NCBI RefSeq assembly: GCF_037042905.1
Contig: NC_087250.1
Coordinates: 5,520,001 to 5,584,000 of the forward strand
DNA: 64,000 nucleotides
From: Lytechinus pictus
Lineage: Eukaryota
Direction: 5' to 3'
Below the pieces are notes generated by a model, which was not told where the DNA came from, ran no database searches, and saw nothing but the letters and a program-made list of their open reading frames with translations. Position numbers and translations under genes: made by a program. Positions 41,257-61,200 of this stretch are shown one piece after another; the stretch's first letter is position 1, and each line of letters starts with the position of its first letter.

Positions 41257-41288
<32 letters not shown>

Positions 41289-41375
41289 AGATATGAAAAA
41301 AAAAGATTGAGGAAGAGGTCATAATACAGATCATAACAAACAGATTGTCTTTTTATCTAGCATTCATGGATTCTC

Positions 41376-41966: not shown

Positions 41967-41967
41967 C

Positions 41968-41980
41968 TGGCGACGAGGAT
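41968..41980 (+). promoter_or_regulatory. Primer-binding site, tRNA-Ser(GCU) type (also 50328-50340)
   Basis: TGGCGACGAGGAT 1 nt after the LTR; complementary to the ...ATCCTCGTCGCCA 3' end of metazoan tRNA-Ser(GCU) as recalled. Confidence 0.8.
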
Positions 41981-43413
41981 TAAAGCGATTTTTATTTTAT
42001 TTTCGGCAAAACATTTTCTTTACTTCGCCACAGCCAACGCCGTTGCAGAATCTGCGTTGGCCGTGGCCGAATATAAAAAAGCCGCCGCCATCTTGAAAAT
42101 TTTAGGCTTTTTATTAATTTGAGCTGTTTGACTCTGTTTCGTCCATAATATTAAATAAAACAAAAAGTAACATATTATTTTAGTTTGAGATTTCATTTTT
42201 TGGTGGGAAAAGTTTGATTTTTAGTTCCGTAAATATACTCTATTTTTTTACCGATCGGCACTGCCGTGCTGGCCTTGAAGGAATTCAGTGGCTAGCTCGA
42301 CAGGAGCTAATCGGATTTTTTTGGACAAAACATTATACGTTGTACTATTTAGGGTAAATATCCACTCATTTTGTTGACCATATATTTAAATCTTCCCTCG
42401 TTAGGATATATTTTTGTGGCCACGGAGTGTGATTGACTTTGATGAAATTTTGATTGCGTTTGACTGTGTTTACTGATGTGGTGTGAATGGATTGCTGAAT
42501 ATTATTGATGTTGTGAGTTGATTATTTTATTACAAGCCTGAATTTGCTTTTCTCCTTTGACCGCCGCGCTGCTGCTGCTGCTGCTGTTGTTAGTATTTTT
42601 TTTGTAATTATATTTCTGGGTGTTTTTTGGAGAAAACACCAGACATTTGCTGCTGCTGCTGCTGCTGCTGTTAATTGTTAGGAATTTATTATTTTTGGTC
42701 ACGCGTCTCAGGAGATAATGAAATTCAGTCTTGTATTAATTATTGTGTTGTTGCTGCTGCTGCTGTATTGAATATTTTGCTGCTGTTGCTCTGCTGTTGT
42801 ATTGTTGCTGCTGCTGCTGTATTGAATATTTTGTTGTTTATTGCTGCTGCCGTTGTGTAATTGAATTGTTGCTGCTGCTGTTGTATAATATATTTTGTTG
42901 CTGGTGCTGCCGTTGATGTGAGCTGTGCTGCTGACATTTGTATTAAATTCATATTCAATCAATTAATTATAAATTGTATAATTAAATAAATTTTGTATAT
43001 ATTTAGATAAATTGTACTTGTAAATATTAACTTTTGTTCAAAAAACAGAAAAAAAATAAATAAATAATAATAATTTATTTATTTGAAATTATTTCTATAT
43101 ATTTTTCATATCTTTCTTTGAACAAGTGAGCGTTCGATTGTTTGCATTTTTTCTTTTCTTTCCTAAGAATTAAATCATACAGGAATTTTATTTTTTAGGA
43201 AAGTAGCCTCTGGATTTTAATTTGATTACATTCTCAGGATATTGTGAGGTTAGTTCTGTTAATTCTCTTTCATTTTTTTTTCAAAAAGTTAATTTTGTCC
43301 CAGATTTATTTTGATTTTATCCGCAAGACAAAGTAGTCTGCAGGATAATTTTTGGCTAATTACAGTTCAATTTTGGAATTTAATTTTTGTTACTGATTAA
43401 TTTCTACATCAAG

Positions 43414-44877: not shown

Positions 44878-44905
44878 AGACATCATCAAGTGGGCAGATA
44901 GGCTT

Positions 44906-45754
44906 ATGACCCTTGCAGGTCAGGCCTTTGTAGGCCTTCCCGACAAGTTCGTTCAAGAACTTGTAGTGGCAAGGTTCTGCCAAGGTGCCCAAGACAAAGA
45001 TGCAGGGCATCATGTCCTGACTTCTCGGCCTGGGACCTTAGATGAAGCCATGACTAAGTACAAATGGTTTCAGTTTACCCAGAAGACCATGCACACGCAT
45101 GGCCCTAGGTCGAGAAAAGAGGTAAGGCAGCTCTCGATGGGAGATGGCGATAGTGACCTAAGGGTGCAAAAGTTGTCTCCCCCAGAGGCTGCCAAGAAGG
45201 GAAATTCTAGCCTTGAGGCTAGACTAAGTGCTCTGGAAGCCCAAAATGCAGTATGGGCATCCAAGATGGATTCGATGGTCGCTGCGATCACGGATCTATC
45301 TAGAAGCACAAAGGAACTCTTGTCGGTGTCGGGAGGCCGGTCGAGGTACCCCTCAGGCCGTGCCCCTGTTACACCTGACAGGCAGAAATACACCTCCGGC
45401 CGAGTTCCTGGTACCCCGGACAGACCAAAGTATACCTATGGTCGGGCTCCAGGTACGCCAGACAGGCCGAGGTTTAACTCAAATTTGACACCAGATCGGT
45501 CAGTAGGAGGCCGAAGGCCATTTTTTGGCCCTTCGCCAACTACAACTGATCGTCAGCGAAACTTCACAGGCTGTTTCAACTGTGGGGAAGAAGGCCATTT
45601 CAGCAGGGCCTGCCCCATGGGAAGATCGCCTGTGAACAGTAGACAAGTAAGGGCTGTAACCTTCGAGGAGGAGGGAAATGGACAGGGATCGGCGGAGATG
45701 GGGAGTCCCCGATCCGATCAGAGATCCCCTCCCCCGCCATCCCCATTCCATTAA
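44906..45754 (+). CDS. gag: Gag C-terminal part with CCHC zinc knuckle, copy 1
   Basis: WADRLMTLAGQAF...RFCQG capsid-like segment; CFNCGEEGHFSRAC. Confidence 0.85.
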   Translation: MTLAGQAFVGLPDKFVQELVVARFCQGAQDKDAGHHVLTSRPGTLDEAMTKYKWFQFTQKTMHTHGPRSRKEVRQLSMGDGDSDLRVQKLSPPEAAKKGNSSLEARLSALEAQNAVWASKMDSMVAAITDLSRSTKELLSVSGGRSRYPSGRAPVTPDRQKYTSGRVPGTPDRPKYTYGRAPGTPDRPRFNSNLTPDRSVGGRRPFFGPSPTTTDRQRNFTGCFNCGEEGHFSRACPMGRSPVNSRQVRAVTFEEEGNGQGSAEMGSPRSDQRSPPPPSPFH

Positions 45755-45765
45755 AGGGCAGCCTA

Positions 45766-48700
45766 ATGCCACAAGACCAAGGGAACCAACGGGCACCGGA
45801 CTCACAAGCAAGCCCAGGGAGCCCGAAATTCTCTAAGGTAACTGAGCACCCTTGGAGGAACCCGCCATGGCCACCAGACATTTCTGGTGATGTTAAAGAT
45901 CAAGAGGTTGAAGAAGTCATTTGTAGAATTGTGTCTACTTCAACATTGAGTGTTGAGTTGGCAGTTAGCAAGGAGCCCATTACATCCGTTTTGGACACTG
46001 CGGCAGCTGTCACCATTATATCTGATAGGCTTTTCCATCGCCTCCAGCCTCGGCCGCCGATCCTTAAGCGTGTAGTTCTTAAGGGGGCTGGCCGAGACAT
46101 GACAATGGACGGCATTGTGATAGGACCTATCACGCTCCAGCTGGGTAACCAAATACTCAACGAGGAGATTCACGTAGCTCCGATAGCAGATGAGATGTTG
46201 TTTGGCGTTGATCTATTAAGAAAACACAATGCCAATATTAGCATTCCAAATGCTATCCTAACTTTGAACGGTGAAAACCTACCAATAATCCAACGCGAAG
46301 ATTCGGGGAGTACGGCAGAGGTGTGTGTAGATAAGGGCGTCTGTGTTCCTCCGTGTTCGGTTCGAAGGGTTAAGTGTTCGGTGGCACTTAATTCTAGCCC
46401 ATTCTTGGTGGAACCTTTGCCTTTCCTACCCATACCTGTTCTTATACCCCGGAGCCTTCATGAAAGTAAGAAAGATACAGAAGTTTTCCTGATAAATTCC
46501 TCTGATATGACCTACAAGTTACGAAGGGGTGATATGATTGGGAAAGCTTATCAAGTCTCGGTGATAGAACCTGAAATAGAACCCTCAGAGGATGTCACAG
46601 TTAGGAGTATTAACACTGTAAAAGCTTCGGACTCAGACATACCTCCTCACCTTCTGGACCTTTGGGGCCGCTCTAATGAGGGGCTGGCCCCAGAGGAACA
46701 GGAGGAGTTGAGAGGGCTGCTACTAAAATATCAATCAGTGTTCGCAAAAGATGAGTTTGACCTTGGTGGTTTCAACGAGGTAACTCATAGCATAGACACG
46801 GGTGATGCGAGGCCCATAAAACAAAAGATGAGGCGGACCCCCCTGAATTTCATTCAGGAGGAGCAGGCACATCTCGACAAGATGCTCGCCGCTGGAGTTA
46901 TCCAGCCGTCTATGTCTGAATGGGCATCGCCCCCTGTGTTAGTGAGGAAAAAAGATGGAGGAGTCCGATGGTGCATTGATTACCGCAAGTTAAACAATGT
47001 CACCAAAAAGGACGTCTACCCCTTACCATGTATTGAAGAATGCCTTGATATTTTAGCAGGCAACAAGTGGTTTTCCAAACTTGATGCCAACGCAGCTTAT
47101 TGGCAAATCAAGGTAAATGAAGCAGATAGGGACAAAACAGCCTTCGTTACAAAACATGGGCTGTATGAGTTCGTCCGCATGGGATTTGGCCTGTGCAATG
47201 CACCGGCCACCTTCCAACGTGTGATGAACTTAGTCCTGAGAGGTCTCACATGGGACGTGGCTCTTGCATTCTTGGATGATATCCTGGTATTGGGTAAATT
47301 ATTTCCAGACCACATCAAGAATCTAGGGGCAGTCCTGAGGCGTTTCAAGGACTACAGACTCAAATTGAAACCCAAGAAGTGTGCCTTGTTTCAACGAAAG
47401 GTGGAGTTCTTGGGTAGGGAAGTGGATGCTACAGGCTTGCATCTACCAGAGGAAAACATCCAAAGGGTAGTGGATTGGCCTACTCCTGCTTCCACTAAAG
47501 AAGTAGAGCAGTTCTTAGGGTTGGCCAACTATCACAGGGTGTTTATGAAAGATTATGCACGGGTGGCTGGGCCATTGTATGAGCTTACAGGCAATCATGC
47601 TTTCAGTTGGACAGAGTTTCATCAGGAGGCATTCGAACAAATCAAAGCTATATTAACCTCAGCCCCTGTGCTCACACTTCCAAACGCACATGACCCGTTC
47701 ATCCTAGATACGGATGCGTCTAGCACAGCGATTGGAGCAGAGCTGCTACAGGTTCAAAATGGTGAGGAGAAGGTCATAGCTTATGGCAGCTTGTCTCTTT
47801 CTCCTCAACAAAGGAACTATTGTGTCACTCGCCGCGAGCTCTTAGCGTTGGTGTTATTTTGCAGACAGTATAGGCATTACCTTTTAGGTAGGCCATTTAC
47901 TGTCAGAACGGATCATGGCAGCCTAACATGGCTGCTCAACTTCAAAACGCCGACAGGACAGCTGTCTCGCTGGCTGGAGGAGTTAGGGCAGTACAATATG
48001 AAAATCGAACACCGGCCCGGTAGGCGCCACTCTAATGCAGATTCTCTTTCGCGCATTCCTGATACAGAATCAGTGTGTGAAGGGTATGAGCATGGTGTGC
48101 GACTACAGGATTTGCCGTGTGGTGGGTGTTCATATTGTACCAAGAGACACAAAGAATGGGCACACTTTGTCGACTGTGTCGATGATGTTGTGCCATTAAG
48201 TCAAAGCCAAAGGGTCTCGAATGTGGCTGTTGAAGAAACTTTCCCTGTCACGCACATGGAAATATTGTTCAACAAGGCCAACTCATTTGAGATCCGAAGT
48301 ATCTCAGTTGACCCAACTGAGGTGGCAGAGGAACCGCCTTCTGACAATTTAGTCAAGCAAGAGCAAGAAAAAGACCAGGTTCTCGTGCCCCTCCGTGAGT
48401 GGTTAACCAACAAGAAAGAACTGGATGAAGGGACTCTGTTTCTCCTCCCGCCAGAGGGAAAGTTCTTGTGGACGAACAGAGAACTCTTCTACTTCAAAGA
48501 AGGAGTTATCTGGATGAAGAAGGATGTAGGTGATGTTATAGTGATTCCAGAATCACTACGGCATGACATCATTCGGCTGAATCATGACCCTCCTTCAGCA
48601 GGGCATGCTGGAATCAATCGCACTCGGGCTAAGCTAAAGTCCAAGTATTATTGGTATCGCATGTCAGAAGATATTCGCATTTACATAGCCAGGTGTACAA

Positions 48701-49074
48701 CTTGCAATCAGAACAAGAAAGCGACCCGCCCTGGGAGGCATCCTATGAAAAGTTTTCATGCGAGCGCCCCCATGGAACGTGTCCATCTTGACTTCATGGG
48801 CCCACTACCAAAGACAACAAATGGTAATGAAAACATCCTGGTTATGGTAGATCAATTTACCAAATGGGTGGAATGCGTACCTTTGCCTTCCCAAACCGCA
48901 GAGATGACAGCTCATGCAGCAGTGAGCAGTTTTTTCTGCCGGTTTGGATATCCATTTCAAATCTTCACGGATCAGGGCAGAAATTTTGAGAGTACACTTT
49001 TCAAGGACATGTGCCGTGTCCTTGATATTCACAAGTCAAAAACGACCGCATTCCGCCCCCAAGCAAAAAGTTGA
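45766..49074 (+). CDS. pol: Pol (protease-RT-RNase H-integrase), copy 1; frameshift near 49065, truncated at 49295
   Basis: VLDTAAAVTII; WCIDYRKLN; FLDDIL; TDASSTAIGA/TRRELLA/RTDHGSL; HDPPSAGH..CTTC; HLDFMGP; TDQGRNF; Gypsy domain order. Confidence 0.95.
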   Translation: MPQDQGNQRAPDSQASPGSPKFSKVTEHPWRNPPWPPDISGDVKDQEVEEVICRIVSTSTLSVELAVSKEPITSVLDTAAAVTIISDRLFHRLQPRPPILKRVVLKGAGRDMTMDGIVIGPITLQLGNQILNEEIHVAPIADEMLFGVDLLRKHNANISIPNAILTLNGENLPIIQREDSGSTAEVCVDKGVCVPPCSVRRVKCSVALNSSPFLVEPLPFLPIPVLIPRSLHESKKDTEVFLINSSDMTYKLRRGDMIGKAYQVSVIEPEIEPSEDVTVRSINTVKASDSDIPPHLLDLWGRSNEGLAPEEQEELRGLLLKYQSVFAKDEFDLGGFNEVTHSIDTGDARPIKQKMRRTPLNFIQEEQAHLDKMLAAGVIQPSMSEWASPPVLVRKKDGGVRWCIDYRKLNNVTKKDVYPLPCIEECLDILAGNKWFSKLDANAAYWQIKVNEADRDKTAFVTKHGLYEFVRMGFGLCNAPATFQRVMNLVLRGLTWDVALAFLDDILVLGKLFPDHIKNLGAVLRRFKDYRLKLKPKKCALFQRKVEFLGREVDATGLHLPEENIQRVVDWPTPASTKEVEQFLGLANYHRVFMKDYARVAGPLYELTGNHAFSWTEFHQEAFEQIKAILTSAPVLTLPNAHDPFILDTDASSTAIGAELLQVQNGEEKVIAYGSLSLSPQQRNYCVTRRELLALVLFCRQYRHYLLGRPFTVRTDHGSLTWLLNFKTPTGQLSRWLEELGQYNMKIEHRPGRRHSNADSLSRIPDTESVCEGYEHGVRLQDLPCGGCSYCTKRHKEWAHFVDCVDDVVPLSQSQRVSNVAVEETFPVTHMEILFNKANSFEIRSISVDPTEVAEEPPSDNLVKQEQEKDQVLVPLREWLTNKKELDEGTLFLLPPEGKFLWTNRELFYFKEGVIWMKKDVGDVIVIPESLRHDIIRLNHDPPSAGHAGINRTRAKLKSKYYWYRMSEDIRIYIARCTTCNQNKKATRPGRHPMKSFHASAPMERVHLDFMGPLPKTTNGNENILVMVDQFTKWVECVPLPSQTAEMTAHAAVSSFFCRFGYPFQIFTDQGRNFESTLFKDMCRVLDIHKSKTTAFRPQAKS

Positions 49075-49616
49075 GAGGGCGAATAGGACCGTGATGGATG
49101 CAGTGCGATGCTACGTCTCAAAGTCACAAAGGGACTGGGACAGGCATCTCCAGCAGATCGCAGGTGCTATTCGCTCCTCTGTAAATCGTACAACTGGATT
49201 TACCCCTAACAAGCTAATGCTGGGTCGGGAGGTTAATCTACCCTCTGATCTCGTATGCTCTGTTCCTCAACCCGCTCAAGAGCAGACCAAAGAAGGATTT
49301 ATTACCACACTTAGACCAGGGTTAACTTAAACCTTGCTATCGGAATACGAAACTTAAACCTAGGTTTAAATATGGCAGTTTATTACCACACTTAGACTAG
49401 GGTTAAGTTAAACCACGCTATCAGAATACGGGCCAGAGAGTTTTGTATACTTATTTCGTTCTACTGAAACATTACAGATAGTCGCTGATTATTCTAATTC
49501 TATAATAATAATAAAAAGTCACATTGCATGGTGAGATAGAGAAATAATTGGAAAGAATGATGGACGAGGGAAAGAGAGAGAGAGAGATAAAGAAATGGAG
49601 GGTGAGATAGAAAAGG

Positions 49617-49648
<32 letters not shown>

Positions 49649-50065
49649 AGATATGAAAAAAAAAGATTGAGGAAGAGGTCATAATACAGATCATAACAAA
49701 CAGATTGTCTTTTTATCTAGCATTCATGGATTCTCTCACACAACCTCTAAGTCTTCTGGGACGGGTATGGAAACAGTTCTCGGCTGCATGCCGTCACTAA
49801 TGTACTGAGAGACACCCCCTCCTTTGCGATTAGTACGGCATTTTGAGAAATGTAAGAATCCATCCACATTGAAAGAGTTTGCTGTATACGCTGTGAACCA
49901 TGTCTCGGTAATGGCGCACACTTCCAGTTTGTTTATTTGGATAAAAGTTTCAAATTCGTCAAACTTGTTCGATAGAGACCTGATATTAGACATGAAAATA
50001 CGGGGGAAATCTTATTTTTCATGTTTCACCTCTTTCTCATTTGTCACATGTAAGGGTGAGATGGA

Positions 50066-50326
50066 TATAGTGTAAGGGGGTTATAGTTAAGCAGACGACA
50101 TCATGCACCCAAGTGACACAAGTCACATGACACATCGGCGGGAGGAACCACAACACAATACAGTACACACGCCACTAAAACACTCCACTCCATACTCAAC
50201 CCCCGAGAGGTACAGACGTCCTGAGAGCTGTGCATAACAAGAATAAGGTAAGGCTTTCTCCCGGTGTATATTGTGTGTAAGTTATAGTGAGTGTATGATT
50301 ATTTATGTTATCGGCCCCCCTCTTTA
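50066..50326 (+). repeat. 5' LTR of the full-length element
   Basis: Matches 41706-41966; followed by the PBS. Confidence 0.93.
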
Positions 50327-51773
50327 CTGGCGACGAGGATTAAAGCGATTTTTATTTTATTTTCGGCAAAACATTTTCTTTACTTCGCCACAGCCAACGC
50401 CGTTGCAGAATCTGCGTTGGCCGTGGCCGAATATAAAAAAGCCGCCGCCATCTTGAAAATTTTAGGCTTTTTATTAATTTGAGCTGTTTGACTCTGTTTC
50501 GTCCATAATATTAAATAAAACAAAAAGTAACATATTATTTTAGTTTGAGATTTCATTTTTTGGTGGGAAAAGTTTGATTTTTAGTTCCGTAAATATACTC
50601 TATTTTTTTACCGATCGGCACTGCCGTGCTGGCCTTGAAGGAATTCAGTGGCTAGCTCGACAGGAGCTAATCGGATTTTTTTGGACAAAACATTATACGT
50701 TGTACTATTTAGGGTAAATATCCACTCATTTTGTTGACCATATATTTAAATCTTCCCTCGTTAGGATATATTTTTGTGGCCACGGAGTGTGATTGACTTT
50801 GATGAAATTTTGATTGCGTTTGACTGTGTTTACTGATGTGGTGTGAATGGATTGCTGAATATTATTGATGTTGTGAGTTGATTATTTTATTACAAGCCTG
50901 AATTTGCTTTTCTCCTTTGACCGCCGCGCTGCTGCTGCTGCTGCTGTTGTTAGTATTTTTTTTGTAATTATATTTCTGGGTGTTTTTTGGAGAAAACACC
51001 AGACATTTGCTGCTGCTGCTGCTGCTGCTGTTAATTGTTAGGAATTTATTATTTTTGGTCACGCGTCTCAGGAGATAATGAAATTCAGTCTTGTATTAAT
51101 TATTGTGTTGTTGCTGCTGCTGCTGTATTGAATATTTTGCTGCTGTTGCTCTGCTGTTGTATTGTTGCTGCTGCTGCTGTATTGAATATTTTGTTGTTTA
51201 TTGCTGCTGCCGTTGTGTAATTGAATTGTTGCTGCTGCTGTTGTATAATATATTTTGTTGCTGGTGCTGCCGTTGATGTGAGCTGTGCTGCTGACATTTG
51301 TATTAAATTCATATTCAATCAATTAATTATAAATTGTATAATTAAATAAATTTTGTATATATTTAGATAAATTGTACTTGTAAATATTAACTTTTGTTCA
51401 AAAAACAGAAAAAAAATAAATAAATAATAATAATTTATTTATTTGAAATTATTTCTATATATTTTTCATATCTTTCTTTGAACAAGTGAGCGTTCGATTG
51501 TTTGCATTTTTTCTTTTCTTTCCTAAGAATTAAATCATACAGGAATTTTATTTTTTAGGAAAGTAGCCTCTGGATTTTAATTTGATTACATTCTCAGGAT
51601 ATTGTGAGGTTAGTTCTGTTAATTCTCTTTCATTTTTTTTTCAAAAAGTTAATTTTGTCCCAGATTTATTTTGATTTTATCCGCAAGACAAAGTAGTCTG
51701 CAGGATAATTTTTGGCTAATTACAGTTCAATTTTGGAATTTAATTTTTGTTACTGATTAATTTCTACATCAAG

Positions 51774-53237
51774 ATGGCGAGCAACATACCAAGAATCAAA
51801 ATCAACTTGTGTTCGTCTGAGGAATTGATGAGTCTGCCCGGAGTGGGTATGGCCACCGCCAACCGCATTCTACATGCGAGGGAGGCGGCCGACCTTACTC
51901 CGGATACATTCTTGTCGATACCTCATATACCGAAGGCGGAACTGTTAGTTTACGCCTTTGATTATGAGCCAACAACAACGGCTCATAATGTGGACCGCAG
52001 AGAAGTGCGCTCCGAAGGAGACGAGCCTTCTACGAGCGTTCCACTTATTCCGTCTAAGGAGCCCCCCGTAAGCCAGGCGTTTGAGGCTTGGCCACAGCAC
52101 ACCCATGCACATAGCGCACAGGGTGCTGTAGGCCAATCTTCTCAGACACAGGCCGGGGAGGCCCCCTCATTTTTCACAGGGGGGAGGCCAGGTGGCGCTT
52201 TTACTCAGCAGCCTTCGGCCTCTCCAGAAGATAGGGCTAAGTCCCTCTGGGCTAATCAATTTGGGTTTTCAGGATGGAACGATGGTCTGTTCCCACCACA
52301 GGGTCCCCACCAAGTTACCCCACCAGGACCCCAGTTCCAATGTGGTCCTCGTGCCCAGGTAGCTACCCCACCAGGACCCCAGTTCCAATTTGGTCCTCAT
52401 GCCCAAGTAGATTTGCATGGTCAGGCTCCCGGTACTCAGGGTGGCCGACCAGCAATGTTCAATCAAACAACCCAGACACCTCCACATAGCTATCCACAGG
52501 CCGTTCCACACTTTACACAAGCACAGTACGAGGAAATGTATGGCGTGATGTTTAGGATGATGCAGATGATGCCATTCGGAGGAACTGGACAGCCAGCTCC
52601 TCCATACTGCAACCCTGCTGCCGCCTACGGTGGGTATTGCCCACCATGGGCTGGAGGCAGATATCCGCCACACTATCCTAACACTGTGGCCCCGCAAACC
52701 TCTCCCCAAGGACCATGTGACTTGCAATATGGGGGTAGCAACCCTGTGTATCAAGGCGCTGGACCTCAAGGAGATGGACATGGAGGCCCAGTATACAGTG
52801 AACATAGAAACACCACAAGGCCATCAGTAAGCCCTGGATACAGGGGGCTGTCAACAAGAAATCAGCCGCCCCGCGTCACCAGACTTACTTCGGCCTCAAG
52901 ACCTGTGGTACCGGAGTATGACGACAGAAGGCCCCCTTCTAGACCAACCTCTTTGCCGAAGACTATTTCGTTCGACGGCAAAGGAAGTTGGGCGGCCTTC
53001 TATTCAAAGTTCCAACTATACACCGAAAGACACGGCATGTCTGATGCAGACAAGAAATATCAGCTGTGTCTGGCGTTGGAGGCCGAAGCTAGTAAGTTCA
53101 TGGCTCTCATTCAGGAGAGCAACCCAAATATCGCCTTCTCTGACTTGGTTACCAAGTTGGAGAAGCGGTTCGCTCTCCAGGATAAAGCCGGAAGTTACTC
53201 GGATGCAATTTCAATAGGCTTTTCAACGCTCGGATGA
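51774..53237 (+). CDS. gag: Gag N-terminal part (HhH domain), copy 2; frameshifted near 53185
   Basis: Same translation as copy 1. Confidence 0.8.
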   Translation: MASNIPRIKINLCSSEELMSLPGVGMATANRILHAREAADLTPDTFLSIPHIPKAELLVYAFDYEPTTTAHNVDRREVRSEGDEPSTSVPLIPSKEPPVSQAFEAWPQHTHAHSAQGAVGQSSQTQAGEAPSFFTGGRPGGAFTQQPSASPEDRAKSLWANQFGFSGWNDGLFPPQGPHQVTPPGPQFQCGPRAQVATPPGPQFQFGPHAQVDLHGQAPGTQGGRPAMFNQTTQTPPHSYPQAVPHFTQAQYEEMYGVMFRMMQMMPFGGTGQPAPPYCNPAAAYGGYCPPWAGGRYPPHYPNTVAPQTSPQGPCDLQYGGSNPVYQGAGPQGDGHGGPVYSEHRNTTRPSVSPGYRGLSTRNQPPRVTRLTSASRPVVPEYDDRRPPSRPTSLPKTISFDGKGSWAAFYSKFQLYTERHGMSDADKKYQLCLALEAEASKFMALIQESNPNIAFSDLVTKLEKRFALQDKAGSYSDAISIGFSTLG

Positions 53238-53265
53238 AGACATCATCAAGTGGGCAGATAGGCTT

Positions 53266-54114
53266 ATGACCCTTGCAGGTCAGGCCTTTGTAGGCCTTCC
53301 CGACAAGTTCGTTCAAGAACTTGTAGTGGCAAGGTTCTGCCAAGGTGCCCAAGACAAAGATGCAGGGCATCATGTCCTGACTTCTCGGCCTGGGACCTTA
53401 GATGAAGCCATGACTAAGTACAAATGGTTTCAGTTTACCCAGAAGACCATGCACACGCATGGCCCTAGGTCGAGAAAAGAGGTAAGGCAGCTCTCGATGG
53501 GAGATGGCGATAGTGACCTAAGGGTGCAAAAGTTGTCTCCCCCAGAGGCTGCCAAGAAGGGAAATTCTAGCCTTGAGGCTAGACTAAGTGCTCTGGAAGC
53601 CCAAAATGCAGTATGGGCATCCAAGATGGATTCGATGGTCGCTGCGATCACGGATCTATCTAGAAGCACAAAGGAACTCTTGTCGGTGTCGGGAGGCCGG
53701 TCGAGGTACCCCTCAGGCCGTGCCCCTGTTACACCTGACAGGCAGAAATACACCTCCGGCCGAGTTCCTGGTACCCCGGACAGACCAAAGTATACCTATG
53801 GTCGGGCTCCAGGTACGCCAGACAGGCCGAGGTTTAACTCAAATTTGACACCAGATCGGTCAGTAGGAGGCCGAAGGCCATTTTTTGGCCCTTCGCCAAC
53901 TACAACTGATCGTCAGCGAAACTTCACAGGCTGTTTCAACTGTGGGGAAGAAGGCCATTTCAGCAGGGCCTGCCCCATGGGAAGATCGCCTGTGAACAGT
54001 AGACAAGTAAGGGCTGTAACCTTCGAGGAGGAGGGAAATGGACAGGGATCGGCGGAGATGGGGAGTCCCCGATCCGATCAGAGATCCCCTCCCCCGCCAT
54101 CCCCATTCCATTAA
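53266..54114 (+). CDS. gag: Gag C-terminal part with CCHC knuckle, copy 2
   Basis: CFNCGEEGHFSRAC. Confidence 0.85.
   Translation: MTLAGQAFVGLPDKFVQELVVARFCQGAQDKDAGHHVLTSRPGTLDEAMTKYKWFQFTQKTMHTHGPRSRKEVRQLSMGDGDSDLRVQKLSPPEAAKKGNSSLEARLSALEAQNAVWASKMDSMVAAITDLSRSTKELLSVSGGRSRYPSGRAPVTPDRQKYTSGRVPGTPDRPKYTYGRAPGTPDRPRFNSNLTPDRSVGGRRPFFGPSPTTTDRQRNFTGCFNCGEEGHFSRACPMGRSPVNSRQVRAVTFEEEGNGQGSAEMGSPRSDQRSPPPPSPFH
54033..54106 (+). promoter_or_regulatory. Predicted -1 ribosomal frameshift signal (also 45673-45746)
   Basis: G GGA AAT heptamer in the gag frame; pol frame is -1 and open from 54003; 7-bp stem GGATCGG/CCGATCC starts 6 nt downstream. Confidence 0.65.
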
Positions 54115-54125
54115 AGGGCAGCCTA

Positions 54126-57100
54126 ATGCCACAAGACCAAGGGAACCAACGGGCACCGGACTCACAAGCAAGCCCAGGGAGCCCGAAATTCTCTAAGGTA
54201 ACTGAGCACCCTTGGAGGAACCCGCCATGGCCACCAGACATTTCTGGTGATGTTAAAGATCAAGAGGTTGAAGAAGTCATTTGTAGAATTGTGTCTACTT
54301 CAACATTGAGTGTTGAGTTGGCAGTTAGCAAGGAGCCCATTACATCCGTTTTGGACACTGCGGCAGCTGTCACCATTATATCTGATAGGCTTTTCCATCG
54401 CCTCCAGCCTCGGCCGCCGATCCTTAAGCGTGTAGTTCTTAAGGGGGCTGGCCGAGACATGACAATGGACGGCATTGTGATAGGACCTATCACGCTCCAG
54501 CTGGGTAACCAAATACTCAACGAGGAGATTCACGTAGCTCCGATAGCAGATGAGATGTTGTTTGGCGTTGATCTATTAAGAAAACACAATGCCAATATTA
54601 GCATTCCAAATGCTATCCTAACTTTGAACGGTGAAAACCTACCAATAATCCAACGCGAAGATTCGGGGAGTACGGCAGAGGTGTGTGTAGATAAGGGCGT
54701 CTGTGTTCCTCCGTGTTCAGTTCGAAGGGTTAAGTGTTCGGTGGCACTTAATTCTAGCCCATTCTTGGTGGAACCTTTGCCTTTCCTACCCATACCTGTT
54801 CTTATACCCCGGAGCCTTCATGAAAGTAAGAAAGATACAGAAGTTTTCCTGATAAATTCCTCTGATATGACCTACAAGTTACGAAGGGGTGATATGATTG
54901 GGAAAGCTTATCAAGTCTCGGTGATAGAACCTGAAATAGAACCCTCAGAGGATGTCACAGTTAGGAGTATTAACACTGTAAAAGCTTCGGACTCAGACAT
55001 ACCTCCTCACCTTCTGGACCTTTGGGGCCGCTCTAATGAGGGGCTGGCCCCAGAGGAACAGGAGGAGTTGAGAGGGCTGCTACTAAAATATCAATCAGTG
55101 TTCGCAAAAGATGAGTTTGACCTTGGTGGTTTCAACGAGGTAACTCATAGCATAGACACGGGTGATGCGAGGCCCATAAAACAAAAGATGAGGCGGACCC
55201 CCCTGAATTTCATTCAGGAGGAGCAGGCACATCTCGACAAGATGCTCGCCGCTGGAGTTATCCAGCCGTCTATGTCTGAATGGGCATCGCCCCCTGTGTT
55301 AGTGAGGAAAAAAGATGGAGGAGTCCGATGGTGCATTGATTACCGCAAGTTAAACAATGTCACCAAAAAGGACGTCTACCCCTTACCATGTATTGAAGAA
55401 TGCCTTGATATTTTAGCAGGCAACAAGTGGTTTTCCAAACTTGATGCCAACGCAGCTTATTGGCAAATCAAGGTAAATGAAGCAGATAGGGACAAAACAG
55501 CCTTCGTTACAAAACATGGGCTGTATGAGTTCGTCCGCATGGGATTTGGCCTGTGCAATGCACCGGCCACCTTCCAACGTGTGATGAACTTAGTCCTGAG
55601 AGGTCTCACATGGGACGTGGCTCTTGCATTCTTGGATGATATCCTGGTATTGGGTAAATTATTTCCAGACCACATCAAGAATCTAGGGGCAGTCCTGAGG
55701 CGTTTCAAGGACTACAGACTCAAATTGAAACCCAAGAAGTGTGCCTTGTTTCAACGAAAGGTGGAGTTCTTGGGTAGGGAAGTGGATGCTACAGGCTTGC
55801 ATCTACCAGAGGAAAACATCCAAAGGGTAGTGGATTGGCCTACTCCTGCTTCCACTAAAGAAGTAGAGCAGTTCTTAGGGTTGGCCAACTATCACAGGGT
55901 GTTTATGAAAGATTATGCACGGGTGGCTGGGCCATTGTATGAGCTTACAGGCAATCATGCTTTCAGTTGGACAGAGTTTCATCAGGAGGCATTCGAACAA
56001 ATCAAAGCTATATTAACCTCAGCCCCTGTGCTCACACTTCCAAACGCACATGACCCGTTCATCCTAGATACGGATGCGTCTAGCACAGCGATTGGAGCAG
56101 AGCTGCTACAGGTTCAAAATGGTGAGGAGAAGGTCATAGCTTATGGCAGCTTGTCTCTTTCTCCTCAACAAAGGAACTATTGTGTCACTCGCCGCGAGCT
56201 CTTAGCGTTGGTGTTATTTTGCAGACAGTATAGGCATTACCTTTTAGGTAGGCCATTTACTGTCAGAACGGATCATGGCAGCCTAACATGGCTGCTCAAC
56301 TTCAAAACGCCGACAGGACAGCTGTCTCGCTGGCTGGAGGAGTTAGGGCAGTACAATATGAAAATCGAACACCGGCCCGGTAGGCGCCACTCTAATGCAG
56401 ATTCTCTTTCGCGCATTCCTGATACAGAATCAGTGTGTGAAGGGTATGAGCATGGTGTGCGACTACAGGATTTGCCGTGTGGTGGGTGTTCATATTGTAC
56501 CAAGAGACACAAAGAATGGGCACACTTTGTCGACTGTGTCGATGATGTTGTGCCATTAAGTCAAAGCCAAAGGGTCTCGAATGTGGCTGTTGAAGAAACT
56601 TTCCCTGTCACGCACATGGAAATATTGTTCAACAAGGCCAACTCATTTGAGATCCGAAGTATCTCAGTTGACCCAACTGAGGTGGCAGAGGAACCGCCTT
56701 CTGACAATTTAGTCAAGCAAGAGCAAGAAAAAGACCAGGTTCTCGTGCCCCTCCGTGAGTGGTTAACCAACAAGAAAGAACTGGATGAAGGGACTCTGTT
56801 TCTCCTCCCGCCAGAGGGAAAGTTCTTGTGGACGAACAGAGAACTCTTCTACTTCAAAGAAGGAGTTATCTGGATGAAGAAGGATGTAGGTGATGTTATA
56901 GTGATTCCAGAATCACTACGGCATGACATCATTCGGCTGAATCATGACCCTCCTTCAGCAGGGCATGCTGGAATCAATCGCACTCGGGCTAAGCTAAAGT
57001 CCAAGTATTATTGGTATCGCATGTCAGAAGATATTCGCATTTACATAGCCAGGTGTACAACTTGCAATCAGAACAAGAAAGCGACCCGCCCTGGGAGGCA

Positions 57101-57434
57101 TCCTATGAAAAGTTTTCATGCGAGCGCCCCCATGGAACGTGTCCATCTTGACTTCATGGGCCCACTACCAAAGACAACAAATGGTAATGAAAACATCCTG
57201 GTTATGGTAGATCAATTTACCAAATGGGTGGAATGCGTACCTTTGCCTTCCCAAACCGCAGAGATGACAGCTCATGCAGCAGTGAGCAGTTTTTTCTGCC
57301 GGTTTGGATATCCATTTCAAATCTTCACGGATCAGGGCAGAAATTTTGAGAGTACACTTTTCAAGGACATGTGCCGTGTCCTTGATATTCACAAGTCAAA
57401 AACGACCGCATTCCGCCCCCAAGCAAAAAGTTGA
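54126..57434 (+). CDS. pol: Pol (PR-RT-RNase H-integrase N-terminus and core), copy 2
   Basis: Same motifs as copy 1. Confidence 0.95.
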   Translation: MPQDQGNQRAPDSQASPGSPKFSKVTEHPWRNPPWPPDISGDVKDQEVEEVICRIVSTSTLSVELAVSKEPITSVLDTAAAVTIISDRLFHRLQPRPPILKRVVLKGAGRDMTMDGIVIGPITLQLGNQILNEEIHVAPIADEMLFGVDLLRKHNANISIPNAILTLNGENLPIIQREDSGSTAEVCVDKGVCVPPCSVRRVKCSVALNSSPFLVEPLPFLPIPVLIPRSLHESKKDTEVFLINSSDMTYKLRRGDMIGKAYQVSVIEPEIEPSEDVTVRSINTVKASDSDIPPHLLDLWGRSNEGLAPEEQEELRGLLLKYQSVFAKDEFDLGGFNEVTHSIDTGDARPIKQKMRRTPLNFIQEEQAHLDKMLAAGVIQPSMSEWASPPVLVRKKDGGVRWCIDYRKLNNVTKKDVYPLPCIEECLDILAGNKWFSKLDANAAYWQIKVNEADRDKTAFVTKHGLYEFVRMGFGLCNAPATFQRVMNLVLRGLTWDVALAFLDDILVLGKLFPDHIKNLGAVLRRFKDYRLKLKPKKCALFQRKVEFLGREVDATGLHLPEENIQRVVDWPTPASTKEVEQFLGLANYHRVFMKDYARVAGPLYELTGNHAFSWTEFHQEAFEQIKAILTSAPVLTLPNAHDPFILDTDASSTAIGAELLQVQNGEEKVIAYGSLSLSPQQRNYCVTRRELLALVLFCRQYRHYLLGRPFTVRTDHGSLTWLLNFKTPTGQLSRWLEELGQYNMKIEHRPGRRHSNADSLSRIPDTESVCEGYEHGVRLQDLPCGGCSYCTKRHKEWAHFVDCVDDVVPLSQSQRVSNVAVEETFPVTHMEILFNKANSFEIRSISVDPTEVAEEPPSDNLVKQEQEKDQVLVPLREWLTNKKELDEGTLFLLPPEGKFLWTNRELFYFKEGVIWMKKDVGDVIVIPESLRHDIIRLNHDPPSAGHAGINRTRAKLKSKYYWYRMSEDIRIYIARCTTCNQNKKATRPGRHPMKSFHASAPMERVHLDFMGPLPKTTNGNENILVMVDQFTKWVECVPLPSQTAEMTAHAAVSSFFCRFGYPFQIFTDQGRNFESTLFKDMCRVLDIHKSKTTAFRPQAKS

Positions 57435-58155
57435 GAGGGCGAATAGGACCGTGATGGATGCAGTGCGATGCTACGTCTCAAAGTCACAAAGGGACTGGGA
57501 CAGGCATCTCCAGCAGATCGCAGGTGCTATTCGCTCCTCTGTAAATCGTACAACTGGATTTACCCCTAACAAGCTAATGCTGGGTCGGGAGGTTAATCTA
57601 CCCTCTGATCTCGTATTCTCTGTTCCTCAACCCGCTCAAGAGCAGACCAAAGAAGAATATGTGGCCGAGTTGACTTGTGCAATGCGTAATGCTCATATTT
57701 CAGCTAGGGCTGCAATCAAATCTGCTCAGCGCAAGATGAAACGAGACTACGATATCAAACAATACACTCGGGAATTCGAGGTAAATGATCGTGTCTACAT
57801 TAGAGACACGGCCTGTGCCAAGGGGAAATCTCGTAAGTTAAACCCCCCTTGGAAAGGGCCGGCGATCATCGTAGAGAAGAGGTCCCCATATCTTTACAGA
57901 GTGGCCTTCAGAAAAACAATAGCCACTTACAATCACGACCGCTTGAAAAAGTGTACGGATCAGAGTAAGGCGGTTATTGAGACTCCTGGCAAAGACAAAC
58001 TATATTGTTTTTGCCGGAAGGCTGATGATGGCTCTCTGATGATATGTTGCGACGAATGCAATGAATGGTACCACGGAGCGTGCGTTGGTATCACAGAGAC
58101 GGAAGGATTAGAAAACGTGAAATGGTTTTGCCCCCCCTGTACTAAGAGGAGGTAG
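57427..58155 (+). CDS. pol: Integrase C-terminal part after the frameshift: catalytic Glu, GPY/F-like motif, PHD finger
   Basis: KVERANRT; PPWKGPAII; LYCFCRKADDGSLMICCDECNEWYHGACVGI...WFCPPC (C4HC3). Confidence 0.9.
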   Translation, partial: KVERANRTVMDAVRCYVSKSQRDWDRHLQQIAGAIRSSVNRTTGFTPNKLMLGREVNLPSDLVFSVPQPAQEQTKEEYVAELTCAMRNAHISARAAIKSAQRKMKRDYDIKQYTREFEVNDRVYIRDTACAKGKSRKLNPPWKGPAIIVEKRSPYLYRVAFRKTIATYNHDRLKKCTDQSKAVIETPGKDKLYCFCRKADDGSLMICCDECNEWYHGACVGITETEGLENVKWFCPPCTKRR

Positions 58156-58198
58156 AATATTTAGAAACAAATGTGTCGTCTATTATTATGCATGTACT

Positions 58199-59587
58199 AT
58201 GATAAGTCGTCTAATAACCACGTTTATATTTCTTTTCCTTCCCCAAATTCTCTCCCCCTCCCCCCATTTGTGCATCATTCTTCTCTTCCCATACAGAGAG
58301 AAAAAGGAGAGAGAGGAAATCCTGCTACCACCGGGGGTGGAGTTAAACGACATAGAGGTAGACGTTGGTTCGGCCCCAGAGGAGGCCCTTCCTGAGCCCC
58401 CCTCTGAAGCCGAACCAACAAAAATTGAATGTATGCAGCAGGCCTCGGAGACCCGTTCCGAAAATCCGCCTCCTGCACCAGCAGGGGCAGATGCTCGGAA
58501 GAAAGAGTTCTCTGAGGCCGAGCTTGCTAAAAAAAAACGTGAGCTTAATAGGCGTAGAAAAGAACGGGCCAAGCGTGCCAAAAAGACAAAAAAGCTGGCG
58601 CAAGACCCGCTTCCGGGAACAAATGCCGGTCCCTCGACCAGTGGAGGCCTTACGGTTGGGGTTGGTCGTGGCCGTGGACTACTGTCCACTTGGCCTAGAC
58701 CACCCCATCCAGTGGAGTGTTCCTCCATTGGAAGAGGGCGGGGAATCACCCCAAAAATGTTAGAGGAAGCTTTGGAGGAGAGCCCACGGCCACTGCGTGC
58801 ATTCGATGCACACTTTCATCCCGATCGCATAAAAATAAGAAAAGGAAAAACTGAACTTCAGGGACAGCCTCTACACCCGGTCGAGGTAGTCGGAGGGGTA
58901 TGGAACTTCTGTGATCCAGTAAGATACTCCGCCCCCGGCTTCCTCGACAGGGTATTCGAGGAACTCCCTGAAGGCTACGCAGTGGCGGTGGGCATCCACC
59001 CGAAGCAGGCCTATGGCCTGAAGCGTTACTATCTTGAGGCGCTGCGATCGGCTCTCGCCGACCCGAGAGTCAGAGGCCTGTCGGAGTTGGGCCTCGATTG
59101 GTCCACGGATGACTCCGAGTGGGGGGCACAGGAGCAGCTTTTTGAGCAGCTCCTAGGGCTCTCCACCGGAAGAGTCCTGGTACTCCATCTCCGGGGGGCC
59201 AATGGCTCTCGTCCCGGCAATGAGCCGATCCCTCGTGCTGTGCACAAGCTGGCGCGCGACGCGATTCGCCGACGGTGTCCGGCCGCTCAGCGCATCCATT
59301 TGCACTGTTTCATGGGTTCGCCGGACATCGTCGACGAATGGACGTCAGCGTTCCGTTATGCGTACTTTGGTGTCACGGGCAGTGCCTCTTACTACAATGG
59401 AGCGAATGCCAAGCTTAAGAGGCTTGGCATTCGGTCCATTCCAGGAAATCGTCTCCTGATCGAGACAGACGCCCCCTACCTGCCCGTCCGCCCTCGCCAC
59501 GGCTGGCAAACAGAAGCCTTTATCGGCGATGTCGGGCAGGTGGTGGCGTCTATCCGAGGGGTTCCTCTACCAGAGTTACTCGATTAA
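58199..59587 (+). CDS. tatD: ORF3: TatD-family metal-dependent nuclease preceded by an acidic/Pro-rich segment and a basic NLS-like segment; true start uncertain
   Basis: FDAHFHPD, VGIHP, LSELGLD, LVLHLR, IHLHCFMG, FGVTG and LLIETDAPYL occur in TatD order (family-level call). Confidence 0.9.
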   Translation: MISRLITTFIFLFLPQILSPSPHLCIILLFPYREKKEREEILLPPGVELNDIEVDVGSAPEEALPEPPSEAEPTKIECMQQASETRSENPPPAPAGADARKKEFSEAELAKKKRELNRRRKERAKRAKKTKKLAQDPLPGTNAGPSTSGGLTVGVGRGRGLLSTWPRPPHPVECSSIGRGRGITPKMLEEALEESPRPLRAFDAHFHPDRIKIRKGKTELQGQPLHPVEVVGGVWNFCDPVRYSAPGFLDRVFEELPEGYAVAVGIHPKQAYGLKRYYLEALRSALADPRVRGLSELGLDWSTDDSEWGAQEQLFEQLLGLSTGRVLVLHLRGANGSRPGNEPIPRAVHKLARDAIRRRCPAAQRIHLHCFMGSPDIVDEWTSAFRYAYFGVTGSASYYNGANAKLKRLGIRSIPGNRLLIETDAPYLPVRPRHGWQTEAFIGDVGQVVASIRGVPLPELLD

Positions 59588-60331
59588 CGCCAGGGAGCTG
59601 TATTGCCTCAAATAAAGGGGCAATGCTGCTCCCTTGCACCTGTCTCTGCCTTTTACCTTAATTGTAAGGCTATTTTATATACAAAAGTTGTATTTTATAT
59701 GTGTTTATTATGCTTTATATATGTCATACAGAAAATGGACGCCTATGAGTTACAATTCTTATTATATATACTAGTTATGCTTTTTGTTGAAATTGGAAAA
59801 TCAGATAAGCAACAATATTTTATATATATATGTATGTATTCATTGATTTAAAAATTTGTTTATTTTTACTTAGGTACATAGCAGTGAGCTTATTTAATTT
59901 ATGTCAAGGCAGAGACAAGGTAAGAATATTTTTTACAATTGGTAATGATGTACAATGTATATATTTATGTATTTGTGTTATATTTATGTTTATGAACATA
60001 AAGAAAAGAAAATGATCACAAAAAAAGAAAATAAAAAGATCACAGAAGAAGATGAAGAAAAAAAAAGAAGGACAAAAAGATCAAAGATAAAGAAAAGAAA
60101 AAGATTACAAAAGAAGAAAATAAATATTACAGAAAGAAAAAAGAGATCAAAGAATACAAGAAAAAAGAAAGAAAAGATATGCTTGAGAAAAAAAAAAAAA
60201 AATAAATGAAAAATAAATGTATGTTGATGTATATTTTATGTTAGGTTAAGTTGAGTTATACCTTACGTTAAGAATGTTAAATATATTAAGTTATGTTAAG
60301 TTGTATTGGAAATAGGCCCCCCAATTTTTTT

Positions 60332-60345
60332 AGGGTGGGGGGGAG
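60332..60345 (+). promoter_or_regulatory. Polypurine tract
   Basis: AGGGTGGGGGGGAG immediately before the 3' LTR. Confidence 0.85.
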
Positions 60346-60606
60346 TATAGTGTAAGGGGGTTATAGTTAAGCAGACGACATCATGCACCCAAGCGACACA
60401 AGTCACATGACACATCGGCGGGAGGAACCACAACACAATACAGTACACACGCCACTAAAACACTCCACTCCATACTCAACCCCAGAGAGGTACAGACGTC
60501 CTGAGAGCTGTGCATAACAAGAATAAGGTAAGGCTTTCTCCCGGTGTATATTGTGTGTAAGTTATAGTGAGTGTATGATTATTTATGTTATCGGCCCCCC
60601 TCTTTA
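60346..60606 (+). repeat. 3' LTR
   Basis: 261 bp; differs from the 5' LTR at aagTgacaca/aagCgacaca and cccCgagagg/cccAgagagg. Confidence 0.93.
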
Positions 60607-61200
60607 TGGATATCAAGTTCGATCGATCAATAGATGATCTATTTTGGGAGAGATCTCTTAGTCCATCGTTTCGATAATTTACGCGAACGGGTATTTTCGC
60701 AGTTTACGAGAGCCCCCTCTGCATCCTCGAGTTCTTGTAATCCCGTACTGATTAGCAACCAAATTCGTTTGTGACGGCAACGGCACCTTTTGTTTGTTAC
60801 GTAACCTATAAAGGTCATTCCCTGAGTACGTGAGGCGCCGAGGTAAGTCTATTGTCCGTTGCTCGATTAGAGTGGTCATTTTATCATCAATGACCAAACG
60901 ATCTTCTTCCAAGTTCAAAGCCGTTTGAGAAGATAATACTCTTCGGTTTAACACACTGCAAACAGGTATACGTGGTAACAACACAAATGAAAAGCATCCA
61001 GAGTTTCATGAAACTTGAAAATACAACAACAGCCATAGTTCAATATTGCACAAAAGTCAGTTCATAATTATCACAGATTCACATGCAACGAGACTTACTA
61101 GTACTTGAAAGAATCACTTTTCTTAGTCGTCTACGAAAGAAGAGAAATTTCAGCAACACAAATTGCTCTCTGCGCTAGGGAAACAGCGCCCTCAGTTTGT
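60607..61200 (-). mobile_element. 5' portion of the LINE split by the Gypsy element (outer end approximate)
   Basis: RTRGCRGG basic motif; the empty-site join reads ...DRSNLISISPLH...(one stop)...DFPRIFMSNIRS in one frame. Confidence 0.55.

Follow-up and report, generated by a model that had tools for sequence, protein, structure and literature searches.

We analyzed a 64,000-nucleotide stretch of the Lytechinus pictus genome (NCBI RefSeq assembly GCF_037042905.1, contig NC_087250.1, positions 5,520,001 to 5,584,000 of the forward strand), which is called the window below and to which all coordinates refer. Positions 50066-60606 of the window hold a 10.5-kb Ty3/Gypsy long terminal repeat (LTR) retrotransposon on the plus strand, in which gag and pol are followed by a third open reading frame (ORF), ORF3. 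A preliminary description, made from the sequence of the window, had placed a helix-hairpin-helix (HhH) domain in Gag, a PHD finger in the integrase and a TatD nuclease in this one element. Pfam searches found all three, with 27.3 bits (HHH_3) and 25.6 bits (HHH), 44.9 bits and 95.1 bits, respectively. The element contains the following features.

50062-50065 and 60607-60610: target-site duplication TGGA, 4 bp, read directly from the sequence
50066-50326, plus strand: 5' LTR, 261 bp
50328-50338, plus strand: primer-binding site TGGCGACGAGG, one base past the 5' LTR, conserved in sister copies
51774-53237, plus strand: Gag, first frame, from the ATG at 51774 (ORF 51744-53237), which breaks near 53185-53237
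~51783-51965, plus strand: ComEA/EEPD1-type HhH domain at the N-terminus of Gag
53218-54114, plus strand: Gag, second frame, with the remaining capsid region and a CCHC zinc knuckle at ~53929-53976
54003-57434, plus strand: Pol, first frame, with protease, reverse transcriptase (RT; FLDD), RNase H, integrase HHCC and most of the rve core (Pfam)
57286-58155, plus strand: Pol, second frame, with the C-terminal part of the integrase and the PHD finger at 58006-58140, right past which Pol ends
58433-59587, plus strand: ORF3, 384 amino acids (aa) from the first in-frame ATG past an acceptor-like site (whole ORF 58121-59587), with the stop at 59585-59587
~58802-59578, plus strand: TatD nuclease domain, C-terminal in ORF3
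59588-60345, plus strand: 3' untranslated region, which has purine-rich repeats and closes with the polypurine tract
~60332-60345, plus strand: polypurine tract, adjoining the 3' LTR
60346-60606, plus strand: 3' LTR, 261 bp

The Pfam domains of ORFs 53218-54114, 54003-57434 and 57286-58155 stand in the order CCHC Gag (zf-CCHC, 29.7 bits, in the second Gag frame), protease, RT, RNase H, integrase HHCC and rve, which is that of Ty3/Gypsy elements. Three further traits described earlier were confirmed: the two LTRs of the window copy differ at only two positions (50114 and 50204), the LTR ends are not TG...CA, and the RT motif is FLDD (...ALAFLDDILVLG...). The LTR termini read 5'-TATAGTG...CTCTTTA-3', that is, TA...TA, and two sister copies on other contigs have identical LTR ends inside 4-bp duplications of their own (GCGA and AAAT). 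Since the sister copies share these ends, the non-TG/CA termini are a family trait and not damage. AFLDD was invariant in the 13 aligned Pol proteins of the clade; both outgroup elements had YLDD. The primer-binding site presumably corresponds to the 3' end of tRNA-Ser, which we regard as a candidate match. The G+C content was 44-54% in the element and 28-40% in the flanks.

At the head of Gag, HHH_3 and HHH matched residues 14-48 of the ORF at 51744-53237, the cutoffs being 27 and 24 bits. When a profile of 13 Gag N-termini was compared with solved structures, it matched EEPD1 (6e-17) and ComEA (1e-10 to 5e-10). The AlphaFold2 (AF2) model of the Gag head had a predicted local distance difference test (pLDDT) score of 84.9, and its best Foldseek match was ComEA 8dss_B, with a probability of 1.00, a template modeling (TM) score of 0.65 and a root mean square deviation of 1.8 over 62 columns; the E value of this match, 0.04, is weak because the domain is short. 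The Gag head is like the HhH of ComEA and EEPD1 in the signature INxN..eEL..lPGIGp.A..I..R and in the fold, and differs from it in being fused to the N-terminus of a retrotransposon Gag. HHH_3 scores reached 42 bits in other families of the same genome and 44 bits in elements of other hosts; judged by these scores, the HhH call is marginal in the window family and becomes convincing only with its relatives. The N-terminal 70 residues of Gag had 49 matches in the genome and the HHH_3 model had 54, most of which were Gag starts ~7 kb upstream of a TatD sequence on the same strand, with only four or five resembling host genes. In at least five diverged families, TatD was preceded at a distance of ~7 kb by an HhH-type Gag N-terminus, and the Gag signature ..IN.CS..EL...PG.. 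was readable in three further diverged families.

The PHD finger makes up the last ~50 residues of Pol (residues 241-285 of ORF 57286-58155; cutoff 24 bits). Its C4HC3 cysteine and histidine columns were invariant in 13 of 13 aligned proteins, and the closest solved sequences were the PHD fingers of Pps, DIDO1, CFP1, TAF3, BPTF and PHF2/8 (E values of 7e-15 to 1e-8), together with ING4. We take all of these fingers to be readers of histone H3 trimethylated at lysine 4 (H3K4me3). The Y, M and W residues of the element align with those of the closest solved fingers, at positions that are presumably the aromatic-cage sites of H3K4me3 readers. A chromodomain, by which chromoviruses are recognized, was not found in the ORFs of the window by Pfam. 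One related protein from JGI (P0114, 1379 aa) has a Tpt1/KptA RNA 2'-phosphotransferase (147.9 bits) between the integrase core and the PHD finger, which adds another module for the processing of nucleic acids to the lineage.

The only Pfam match in ORF3 was TatD_DNase (cutoff 27 bits), which covered residues 228-486 of ORF 58121-59587 and profile positions 1-240 of 253; the envelope glycoprotein that marks errantiviruses was not among the Pfam matches of ORF3. Relatives of ORF3 scored 102-142 bits with the same model. The motifs D-x-H-x-H-x-D, SE.G.D, H, H.H and ETD.P were invariant in all 17 ORF3 TatD domains compared and are present in the window copy; as in the family at large, these residues (HxH, Glu, His, His and Asp) presumably bind metal. 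ORF3 matches the TatD family (PF01026, with YcfH/YabD, E. coli TatD and TATDN1-3) over the full length with all metal-binding motifs, and differs from known TatD nucleases in lying inside a retrotransposon, in its long variable N-terminal extension, and in being intron-less and multi-copy. The closest solved sequences were YcfH-type proteins of S. aureus (1e-17) and E. coli (7e-11), with TATDN3 at 5e-4, and a protein atlas returned generic TatD clusters only. Among named proteins, ORF3 was 99% identical to one from Lytechinus pictus and 73% identical to one from L. variegatus.

The N-terminal part of the window ORF3 is acidic and then basic, and has two GRGRG motifs. Most ORF3 proteins have a conserved domain of ~150 aa before TatD, with invariant C..C..H..H and the motif ...NSPA.L.HWR.L (examples in alignment A4 are L077:9436-9882 and L038:2437-2877). 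AF2 modeled this CCHH and helical domain with a pLDDT of 93. Against the Protein Data Bank, its best sequence match had an E value of 0.52, no Foldseek match reached E <= 0.001, and the best VIA Z was 3.1.

We then calculated the ratio of nonsynonymous to synonymous substitution rates (dN/dS). For the TatD domain, dN/dS was 0.068 in the only unsaturated pair (L039 and L044; dS 0.61, 271 codons), and 0.146 and 0.206 in two near-saturated pairs; 11 of the 16 pairs were saturated at synonymous sites, so that one pair was cleanly informative. The N-terminal part of ORF3 had a dN/dS of 0.43. As judged from these ratios and the invariant motifs, the catalytic motifs of TatD are intact and under purifying selection. 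Two loci (L045 at C15:31.24 Mb and L046 at C18:26.15 Mb) have a TatD ORF of 763-775 aa in which Gln replaces one conserved His. Neither a PHD nor an RT match of the clade was located in their vicinity, and they may be decayed or differently organized relatives.

The co-conservation of the three modules was analyzed within the same genome (812 Mb). With the RT-RNase H query, 103 rows were scored of 1443 candidates; 30 of them were at 66-100% identity and, after a gap, the other 73 were at 49-53%. For 25 of the 30 clade rows, TatD was matched on the same strand no more than 9 kb downstream; this held for none of the 73 outgroup rows. The five clade rows without such a match were a duplicated partial unit of the window element and four other copies. 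With the integrase C-terminal query, 29 of 29 clade loci matched through the PHD finger (residues 2-148 of 151; two of the matches partial or split, by comparison of coordinates), while outgroup pol loci matched over the first 85-96 residues only, short of the PHD finger. A DNA search with the part from the integrase through the PHD finger and TatD to the 3' end gave full-length matches at 87-93% identity on four other contigs. The TatD-domain protein search had 80 matches, many of them intron-less multi-copy ORFs at 33-48% identity. Pfam found the rve core and the PHD finger directly before the TatD ORF at three loci (L037, L039 and L040) and the PHD finger before it at another (L047). Overall, ORF3 occupies the same place in at least 10 diverged families of the genome.

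The Pol alignment was also used to scan contigs of prokaryote genomes, in which we found 17 loci (L070-L086), on contigs labeled as metagenome-assembled genomes (MAGs) of symbionts (Sedimenticola, SUP05 and other Gammaproteobacteria; by protein names, Thiodiazotropha is also among the labels). Fifteen of the loci were 46-54% identical to the query Pol. Since a eukaryote-type LTR element cannot be bacterial, these complete LTR retrotransposons on published symbiont MAG contigs are most likely mis-binned host DNA. The PHD finger ended pol in nine of nine such loci, a TatD ORF3 of 408-1101 aa followed it in all eight with downstream DNA, and HHH_3 was detected at nine of nine Gag N-termini (E <= 0.01, 17-44 bits; one Gag cut by a contig end was excluded), six of which were over the curated cutoff. 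In contrast, an outgroup element at 38% identity had none of the three modules, and its third ORF encoded a C2H2 protein.

Public proteins extended the range of hosts. Among the 120 best Pol relatives, sampled with a query that covered the integrase and the PHD finger, 111 carried PF00628, including named proteins of Ostrea, Pinctada, Nucella and Acanthaster. One Acanthaster model joins rve, PHD and TatD, and one protein of 2111 aa joins HHH_3, pol and PHD. A profile of 17 TatD domains, searched against long proteins only, retrieved 113 proteins of 486-1167 aa from four sea-urchin genera (among them Strongylocentrotus, Lytechinus and Diadema), eight bivalve genera and an abalone, the molluscs being Dreissena, Pinctada, Mya, Argopecten, Saccostrea, Mytilus, Crassostrea, Tegillarca and Haliotis; the weakest ten were unrelated bacterial fusions.

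LTR retrotransposons do acquire host sequences, and NCBI pipelines label the ORF3 proteins as ordinary genes ('YabD-like', 'TATDN2'). It could be argued from this that TatD is host coding sequence, whole or in part, which this one element or one young family captured by accident and for which it has no use. We find that hardly credible. TatD stands in the same position in the at least 10 diverged families and in ~50%-identical elements of other hosts, and it is free of introns, with invariant catalytic motifs and a dN/dS of 0.07-0.2; spread through one recent segmental duplication is excluded by the protein identity of 33-48%.

The phylogeny of Pol was built with FastTree from 104 Pol cores, namely, the relatives and one outgroup, after 26 of 130 rows that did not span RT to integrase were dropped. 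All relatives formed one group against the outgroup. The few rows without a PHD finger each stood alone next to PHD carriers, a pattern expected of truncated models or of single losses. The tree bears on the possibility that the three modules were gained independently and merely co-occur, with no single lineage that shares a toolkit. PHD fingers on integrases do occur in unrelated retrotransposons (PMC6673714), and P0114 with its Tpt1/KptA domain shows that the lineage shuffles modules. On the other hand, the three modules recur in the same positions throughout the clade as sampled, and two independent data sets show the nearest outgroups to be without any of them; with the isolated position of the PHD-less tips, this makes independent gain very unlikely.

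Scoring the modules among relatives had been proposed in the preliminary description, and the outcome was that close RT relatives keep them and that they are co-conserved both within the genome (TatD in 25 of 30 rows, PHD at 29 of 29 loci, TatD in none of the 73 outgroup rows) and in the ~50%-identical elements elsewhere (TatD in 8 of 8, PHD in 9 of 9, HhH in 9 of 9). We consider it likely that the window element is a recently inserted, already defective copy of an old three-gene Gypsy lineage of echinoderms and molluscs defined by three co-inherited additions. The distinct lineage with a coordinated toolkit that had been suggested earlier was upheld in its evolutionary part, by the co-conservation and by outgroups with none of the three modules; the functional part we infer from homology.

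Several observations weigh against this reading. The HHH_3 score in the window is only 27.3 bits, and it fell below the cutoff in three of the nine elements of other hosts. Only 103 of the 1443 RT-RNase H candidates were scored, the Pol sample was biased to PHD carriers by its query, and five ingroup rows of the tree had no PHD finger by Pfam. One family of two copies (C3 and C29), which share ~1.4 kb past pol, has pol with the PHD finger and no ORF3; in another family, ORF3 is deleted from one copy; and one copy is truncated past ORF3 residue 265. TatD is dispensable at least in the short term and is not indispensable to every member of the clade. The window family is without the CCHH and helical domain found in most ORF3 proteins, the most numerous relative is a gag-plus-protease derivative without TatD, and the window copy is itself unable to encode full-length Gag, integrase or a complete ORF3.

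The commonest relative is an internally deleted derivative that retains gag, protease and the 3' end, with two remnants of pol between them, and is without the RT core, integrase, PHD finger and TatD (examples are L010 at C11:12.88 Mb, L012 at C8:11.65 Mb, L014 at C16:26.74 Mb and L018 at C3:0.55 Mb). Among 25 Gag-start matches at >=94% identity, 14 were in open frames of 769-790 aa, 2 of these 14 being the full-length sister copies. The open gag frames in the derivatives indicate that the HhH-headed Gag is kept intact in non-autonomous copies.

The two full-length sister copies were ~96.8% identical to the window copy across the internal region. They have an uninterrupted gag (786 and 790 aa, starting with the HhH domain), pol (1385 aa, ending with the PHD finger) and TatD-encoding ORF3 (476 and 501 aa); three further copies were interrupted or internally deleted. 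In the window copy, Gag is split over two frames, and so is the integrase core, since the first Pol frame breaks inside rve within 57286-57434. Its ORF3 stops 13 codons short of the stop used in the two sister copies. The LTRs are nearly identical, yet the frames are broken, so the window copy is dead despite its recent insertion. The earlier designation as a young element agrees with the two LTR differences and has to be qualified by the broken gag and integrase frames and the short ORF3. In sister copies L021-L024, the LTRs were 84-89% identical to the window LTR, compared with ~96.8% internally, which suggests that LTRs were swapped between subfamilies or changed much faster.

The sequence upstream of the element was found by self-BLAST to be a tandem duplication.

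40934-49293, plus strand: first unit of the tandem duplication, 8360 bp, with 772 bp of host flank, an LTR copy at 41706-41966 and the internal part to mid-integrase

Positions 40934-49295 and 49294-57655 are 99.976% identical (2 of 8362 bases differ), and the two units overlap by 2 bp where they meet. An apparent second copy of the element upstream (41706-49295) was considered as an independent insertion and was rejected, since it is part of this 8.4-kb duplication. The defective state of the copy, the origin of the upstream copy by tandem duplication and the marginal HhH score go beyond the preliminary description.

The near-perfect 8360-bp duplication could be a real rearrangement or an assembly artifact. 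If both the frame breaks and the duplication were assembly errors, the true copy would be intact and single. The perfection of the duplication (its two differences and 2-bp junction overlap) is what a mis-assembly could give, and contigs of one sequencing run (X1) show small length differences from the window at all three broken places. However, the same X1 contigs deviate from the window at many further sites and are probably derived from sister copies, and both duplicated units carry identical breaks. Assembly error appears to us unlikely as the cause, and we continue to regard the window copy as a defective member of the three-gene lineage.

The gag and pol genes overlap at 54003-54114 with pol in the -1 frame, and the sister copies have the same -1 arrangement. 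Three candidate expression signals were located.

50247/50248, plus strand: donor-like site AAG/GTAAGG in the 5' LTR
54033-54109, plus strand: candidate -1 frameshift signal, with the heptamer G GGA AAT in the gag frame at 54033-54039, then a stem-loop
58220-58296, plus strand: polypyrimidine tract and ...ACAG/ acceptor-like site, directly upstream of the coding part of ORF3

The stem-loop has a predicted folding energy of -37.7 kcal/mol (z -2.33), and 4 of 200 shuffled sequences folded as well. Gag-pol is probably made from unspliced RNA by -1 frameshifting. Both splice sites are of textbook form, and the acceptor motif was conserved in five of five copies examined. One X1 contig joins the LTR letters ...ACAAGAATA to the element at 58295-58297, and these letters exactly match the LTRs of two relatives, in which GTAAGG comes next. 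Once the two are joined, ORF3 has its first in-frame ATG at 58433, and a Lytechinus variegatus gene model begins right past the equivalent acceptor. The word depth in X1 was ~100-130 over ORF3, ~11-25 over pol and 23-57 over gag; that ORF3 is deeper than gag, despite many more genomic copies of gag, argues that X1 is RNA. These data are suggestive, and not proof, that ORF3 is translated from a subgenomic RNA spliced from 50247/50248 to 58296/58297. Splicing is called into question by its reliance on a single contig with a relative-type LTR part, from a run whose kind (RNA or DNA) was guessed, and by three raw RNA runs, which gave 34, 10 and 59 reads on the element, on both strands and with no joints, numbers too small to bear on expression. 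Two other candidates for evidence of splicing were rejected: the short-read pile-ups at 58269-58304, with unlike letters on the two sides, came from a related locus and not from the window element, and a locus at C8 1.87 Mb that might have been copied back from the spliced RNA retains the acceptor tract and proved to be a 5'-truncated relative.

The domain homologies suggest how the modules may work. It is reasonable, given the likeness to the ComEA/EEPD1-type HhH, that the Gag head would bind duplex DNA without sequence preference, and it could keep Gag attached to the cDNA or anchor the pre-integration complex on chromatin. Reading of a histone mark by the integrase is likewise reasonable from the homology of its PHD finger, which may dock the intasome on H3K4-methylated nucleosomes and so bias insertion to active promoters. 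ORF3 would be supplied by the spliced subgenomic RNA, beside frameshifted Gag-pol from unspliced RNA. The TatD protein has a basic stretch resembling a nuclear localization signal (NLS), with the CCHH motif and helical domain in most relatives, and may act in the nucleus on hybrids or single-stranded ends. Tentatively, and with less than even confidence, we propose a nuclear 3'-5' exonuclease or endonuclease whose substrates would be the RNA:DNA hybrids or single-stranded ends of intermediates formed as the element itself replicates and integrates. The DNA-end processing first suggested for TatD is one of several possible roles; human TATDN2 is reported to cut RNA in R-loops (PMC10711561).

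On the other hand, the TatD protein of ORF3 may be an accessory counter-defense factor made from its own mRNA, and not a helper of replication or integration. It could clean up cytosolic DNA or RNA:DNA hybrids of the element in the manner of TREX1, before innate sensors are alerted by them, or attack the nuclear silencing machinery of the host. The GRGRG motifs could then be sites of arginine methylation and Tudor docking, RG motifs being methylation or Tudor sites. ORF3 stands apart as a gene and probably has a subgenomic RNA of its own, as is the case for accessory genes of retroviruses; its N-terminal part is fast-evolving and variable, with a dN/dS of 0.43 and loss and gain of domains, as in a host-parasite arms race; and an element can lose ORF3 and yet leave copies. 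However, the basic NLS-like stretch and the zinc-finger-like domain would fit a nuclear nucleic-acid enzyme of any purpose, and TatD enzymes are generalists. We regard the counter-defense role as possible and doubtful. A bolder version would be an ancient Gypsy lineage of molluscs and echinoderms that has its own nuclease as a counter-defense or immune-evasion gene on a dedicated spliced mRNA, uses it to destroy hybrids or cDNA derived from the element or to disturb small-RNA silencing in the nucleus, and sends its copies to active promoters through an H3K4me3-reading integrase; this appears rather unlikely. Our preferred, tentative proposal for ORF3 is still the nuclear nuclease acting on the element's own intermediates.

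Integrase-fused readers (chromodomain and PHD) and three-gene Gypsy elements with spliced RNAs are already known. Like the window element, chromoviruses have a histone-tail reader at the very end of a Gypsy integrase, presumably steering integration, but their reader is a chromodomain, while the window element has a PHD finger, together with an HhH-Gag and a nuclease gene, in marine invertebrates. According to PMC6673714, chromodomains dock chromoviruses on heterochromatin (Gao et al. 2008, cited there), and PHD fingers are known in CR1-like non-LTR elements (Kapitonov and Jurka 2003, cited there) and in REM1 of Chlamydomonas (Perez-Alegre et al. 2005, cited there). CR1-like elements and REM1 share a retrotransposon-encoded PHD finger with the window element, but are unrelated lineages that are not known to have a TatD gene or an HhH-Gag. 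CopiaMBD of arthropods, described in the same text, likewise keeps a captured host chromatin-binding domain beside the integrase; it is a Copia element with one module, MBD, whereas the window element is a Gypsy element with three, the reader being PHD. Errantiviruses with env (PMC13524379) also have gag, pol and a further protein from spliced RNA, but their third gene encodes an envelope in place of a nuclease. Cer1 with CERV (PMC10309623) makes a third protein from spliced RNA as well, in that case an RNA-export protein.

In the literature searched, with subscription journals and Repbase reports lying outside the search, we found no report of an HhH fused to Gag or of a TatD gene in LTR retrotransposons, and no paper describing the lineage; neither PHD nor TatD was mentioned in papers dealing with LTR elements of molluscs and annelids or with Gypsy elements that have env. 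The lineage is widespread in marine invertebrates and apparently undescribed.

Further repeats lie in the window. Within the element, the leader contains a CTG-rich unit of 60 nucleotides repeated four times (within 50904-51260), and the purine-rich repeat array of the 3' untranslated region is at 59995-60210. Elsewhere there are two large inverted repeats, at 10677-14291 and 14521-10844 (3.7 kb, 91%) and at 33259-35290 and 40895-38733 (~2 kb, 78-86%). Both contain internal tandem arrays and are probably other mobile elements.

The lineage has consequences for the annotation of animal genes. Animal TATDN2 has a long N-terminal region and a C-terminal TatD domain, and a corollary of the bolder, rather unlikely version above would be that animal TATDN2 and the retroelement ORF3 share ancestry, in either direction. 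The giant-squid Hox cluster was drawn with 'TATDN2' among transposon-derived genes (PMC6962438), and that gene may be an ORF3 of the present lineage mistaken for one of the host. Annotation pipelines call these ORFs host genes ('YabD-like hydrolase', 'TATDN2' and 'TatD'), which inflates gene counts in sea-urchin and mollusc genomes, and whole elements stand in published symbiont MAGs as apparent host contamination. TatD appears here as a standing gene of an LTR retrotransposon. It has been kept in two or more phyla, together with a Gag head and an integrase that would, by homology, bind DNA and read histones, respectively. The lineage would thus offer a natural system in which to ask what a retrotransposon gains from a nuclease of its own, how an integrase may use H3K4 methylation and not heterochromatin marks, and how an accessory gene is expressed.

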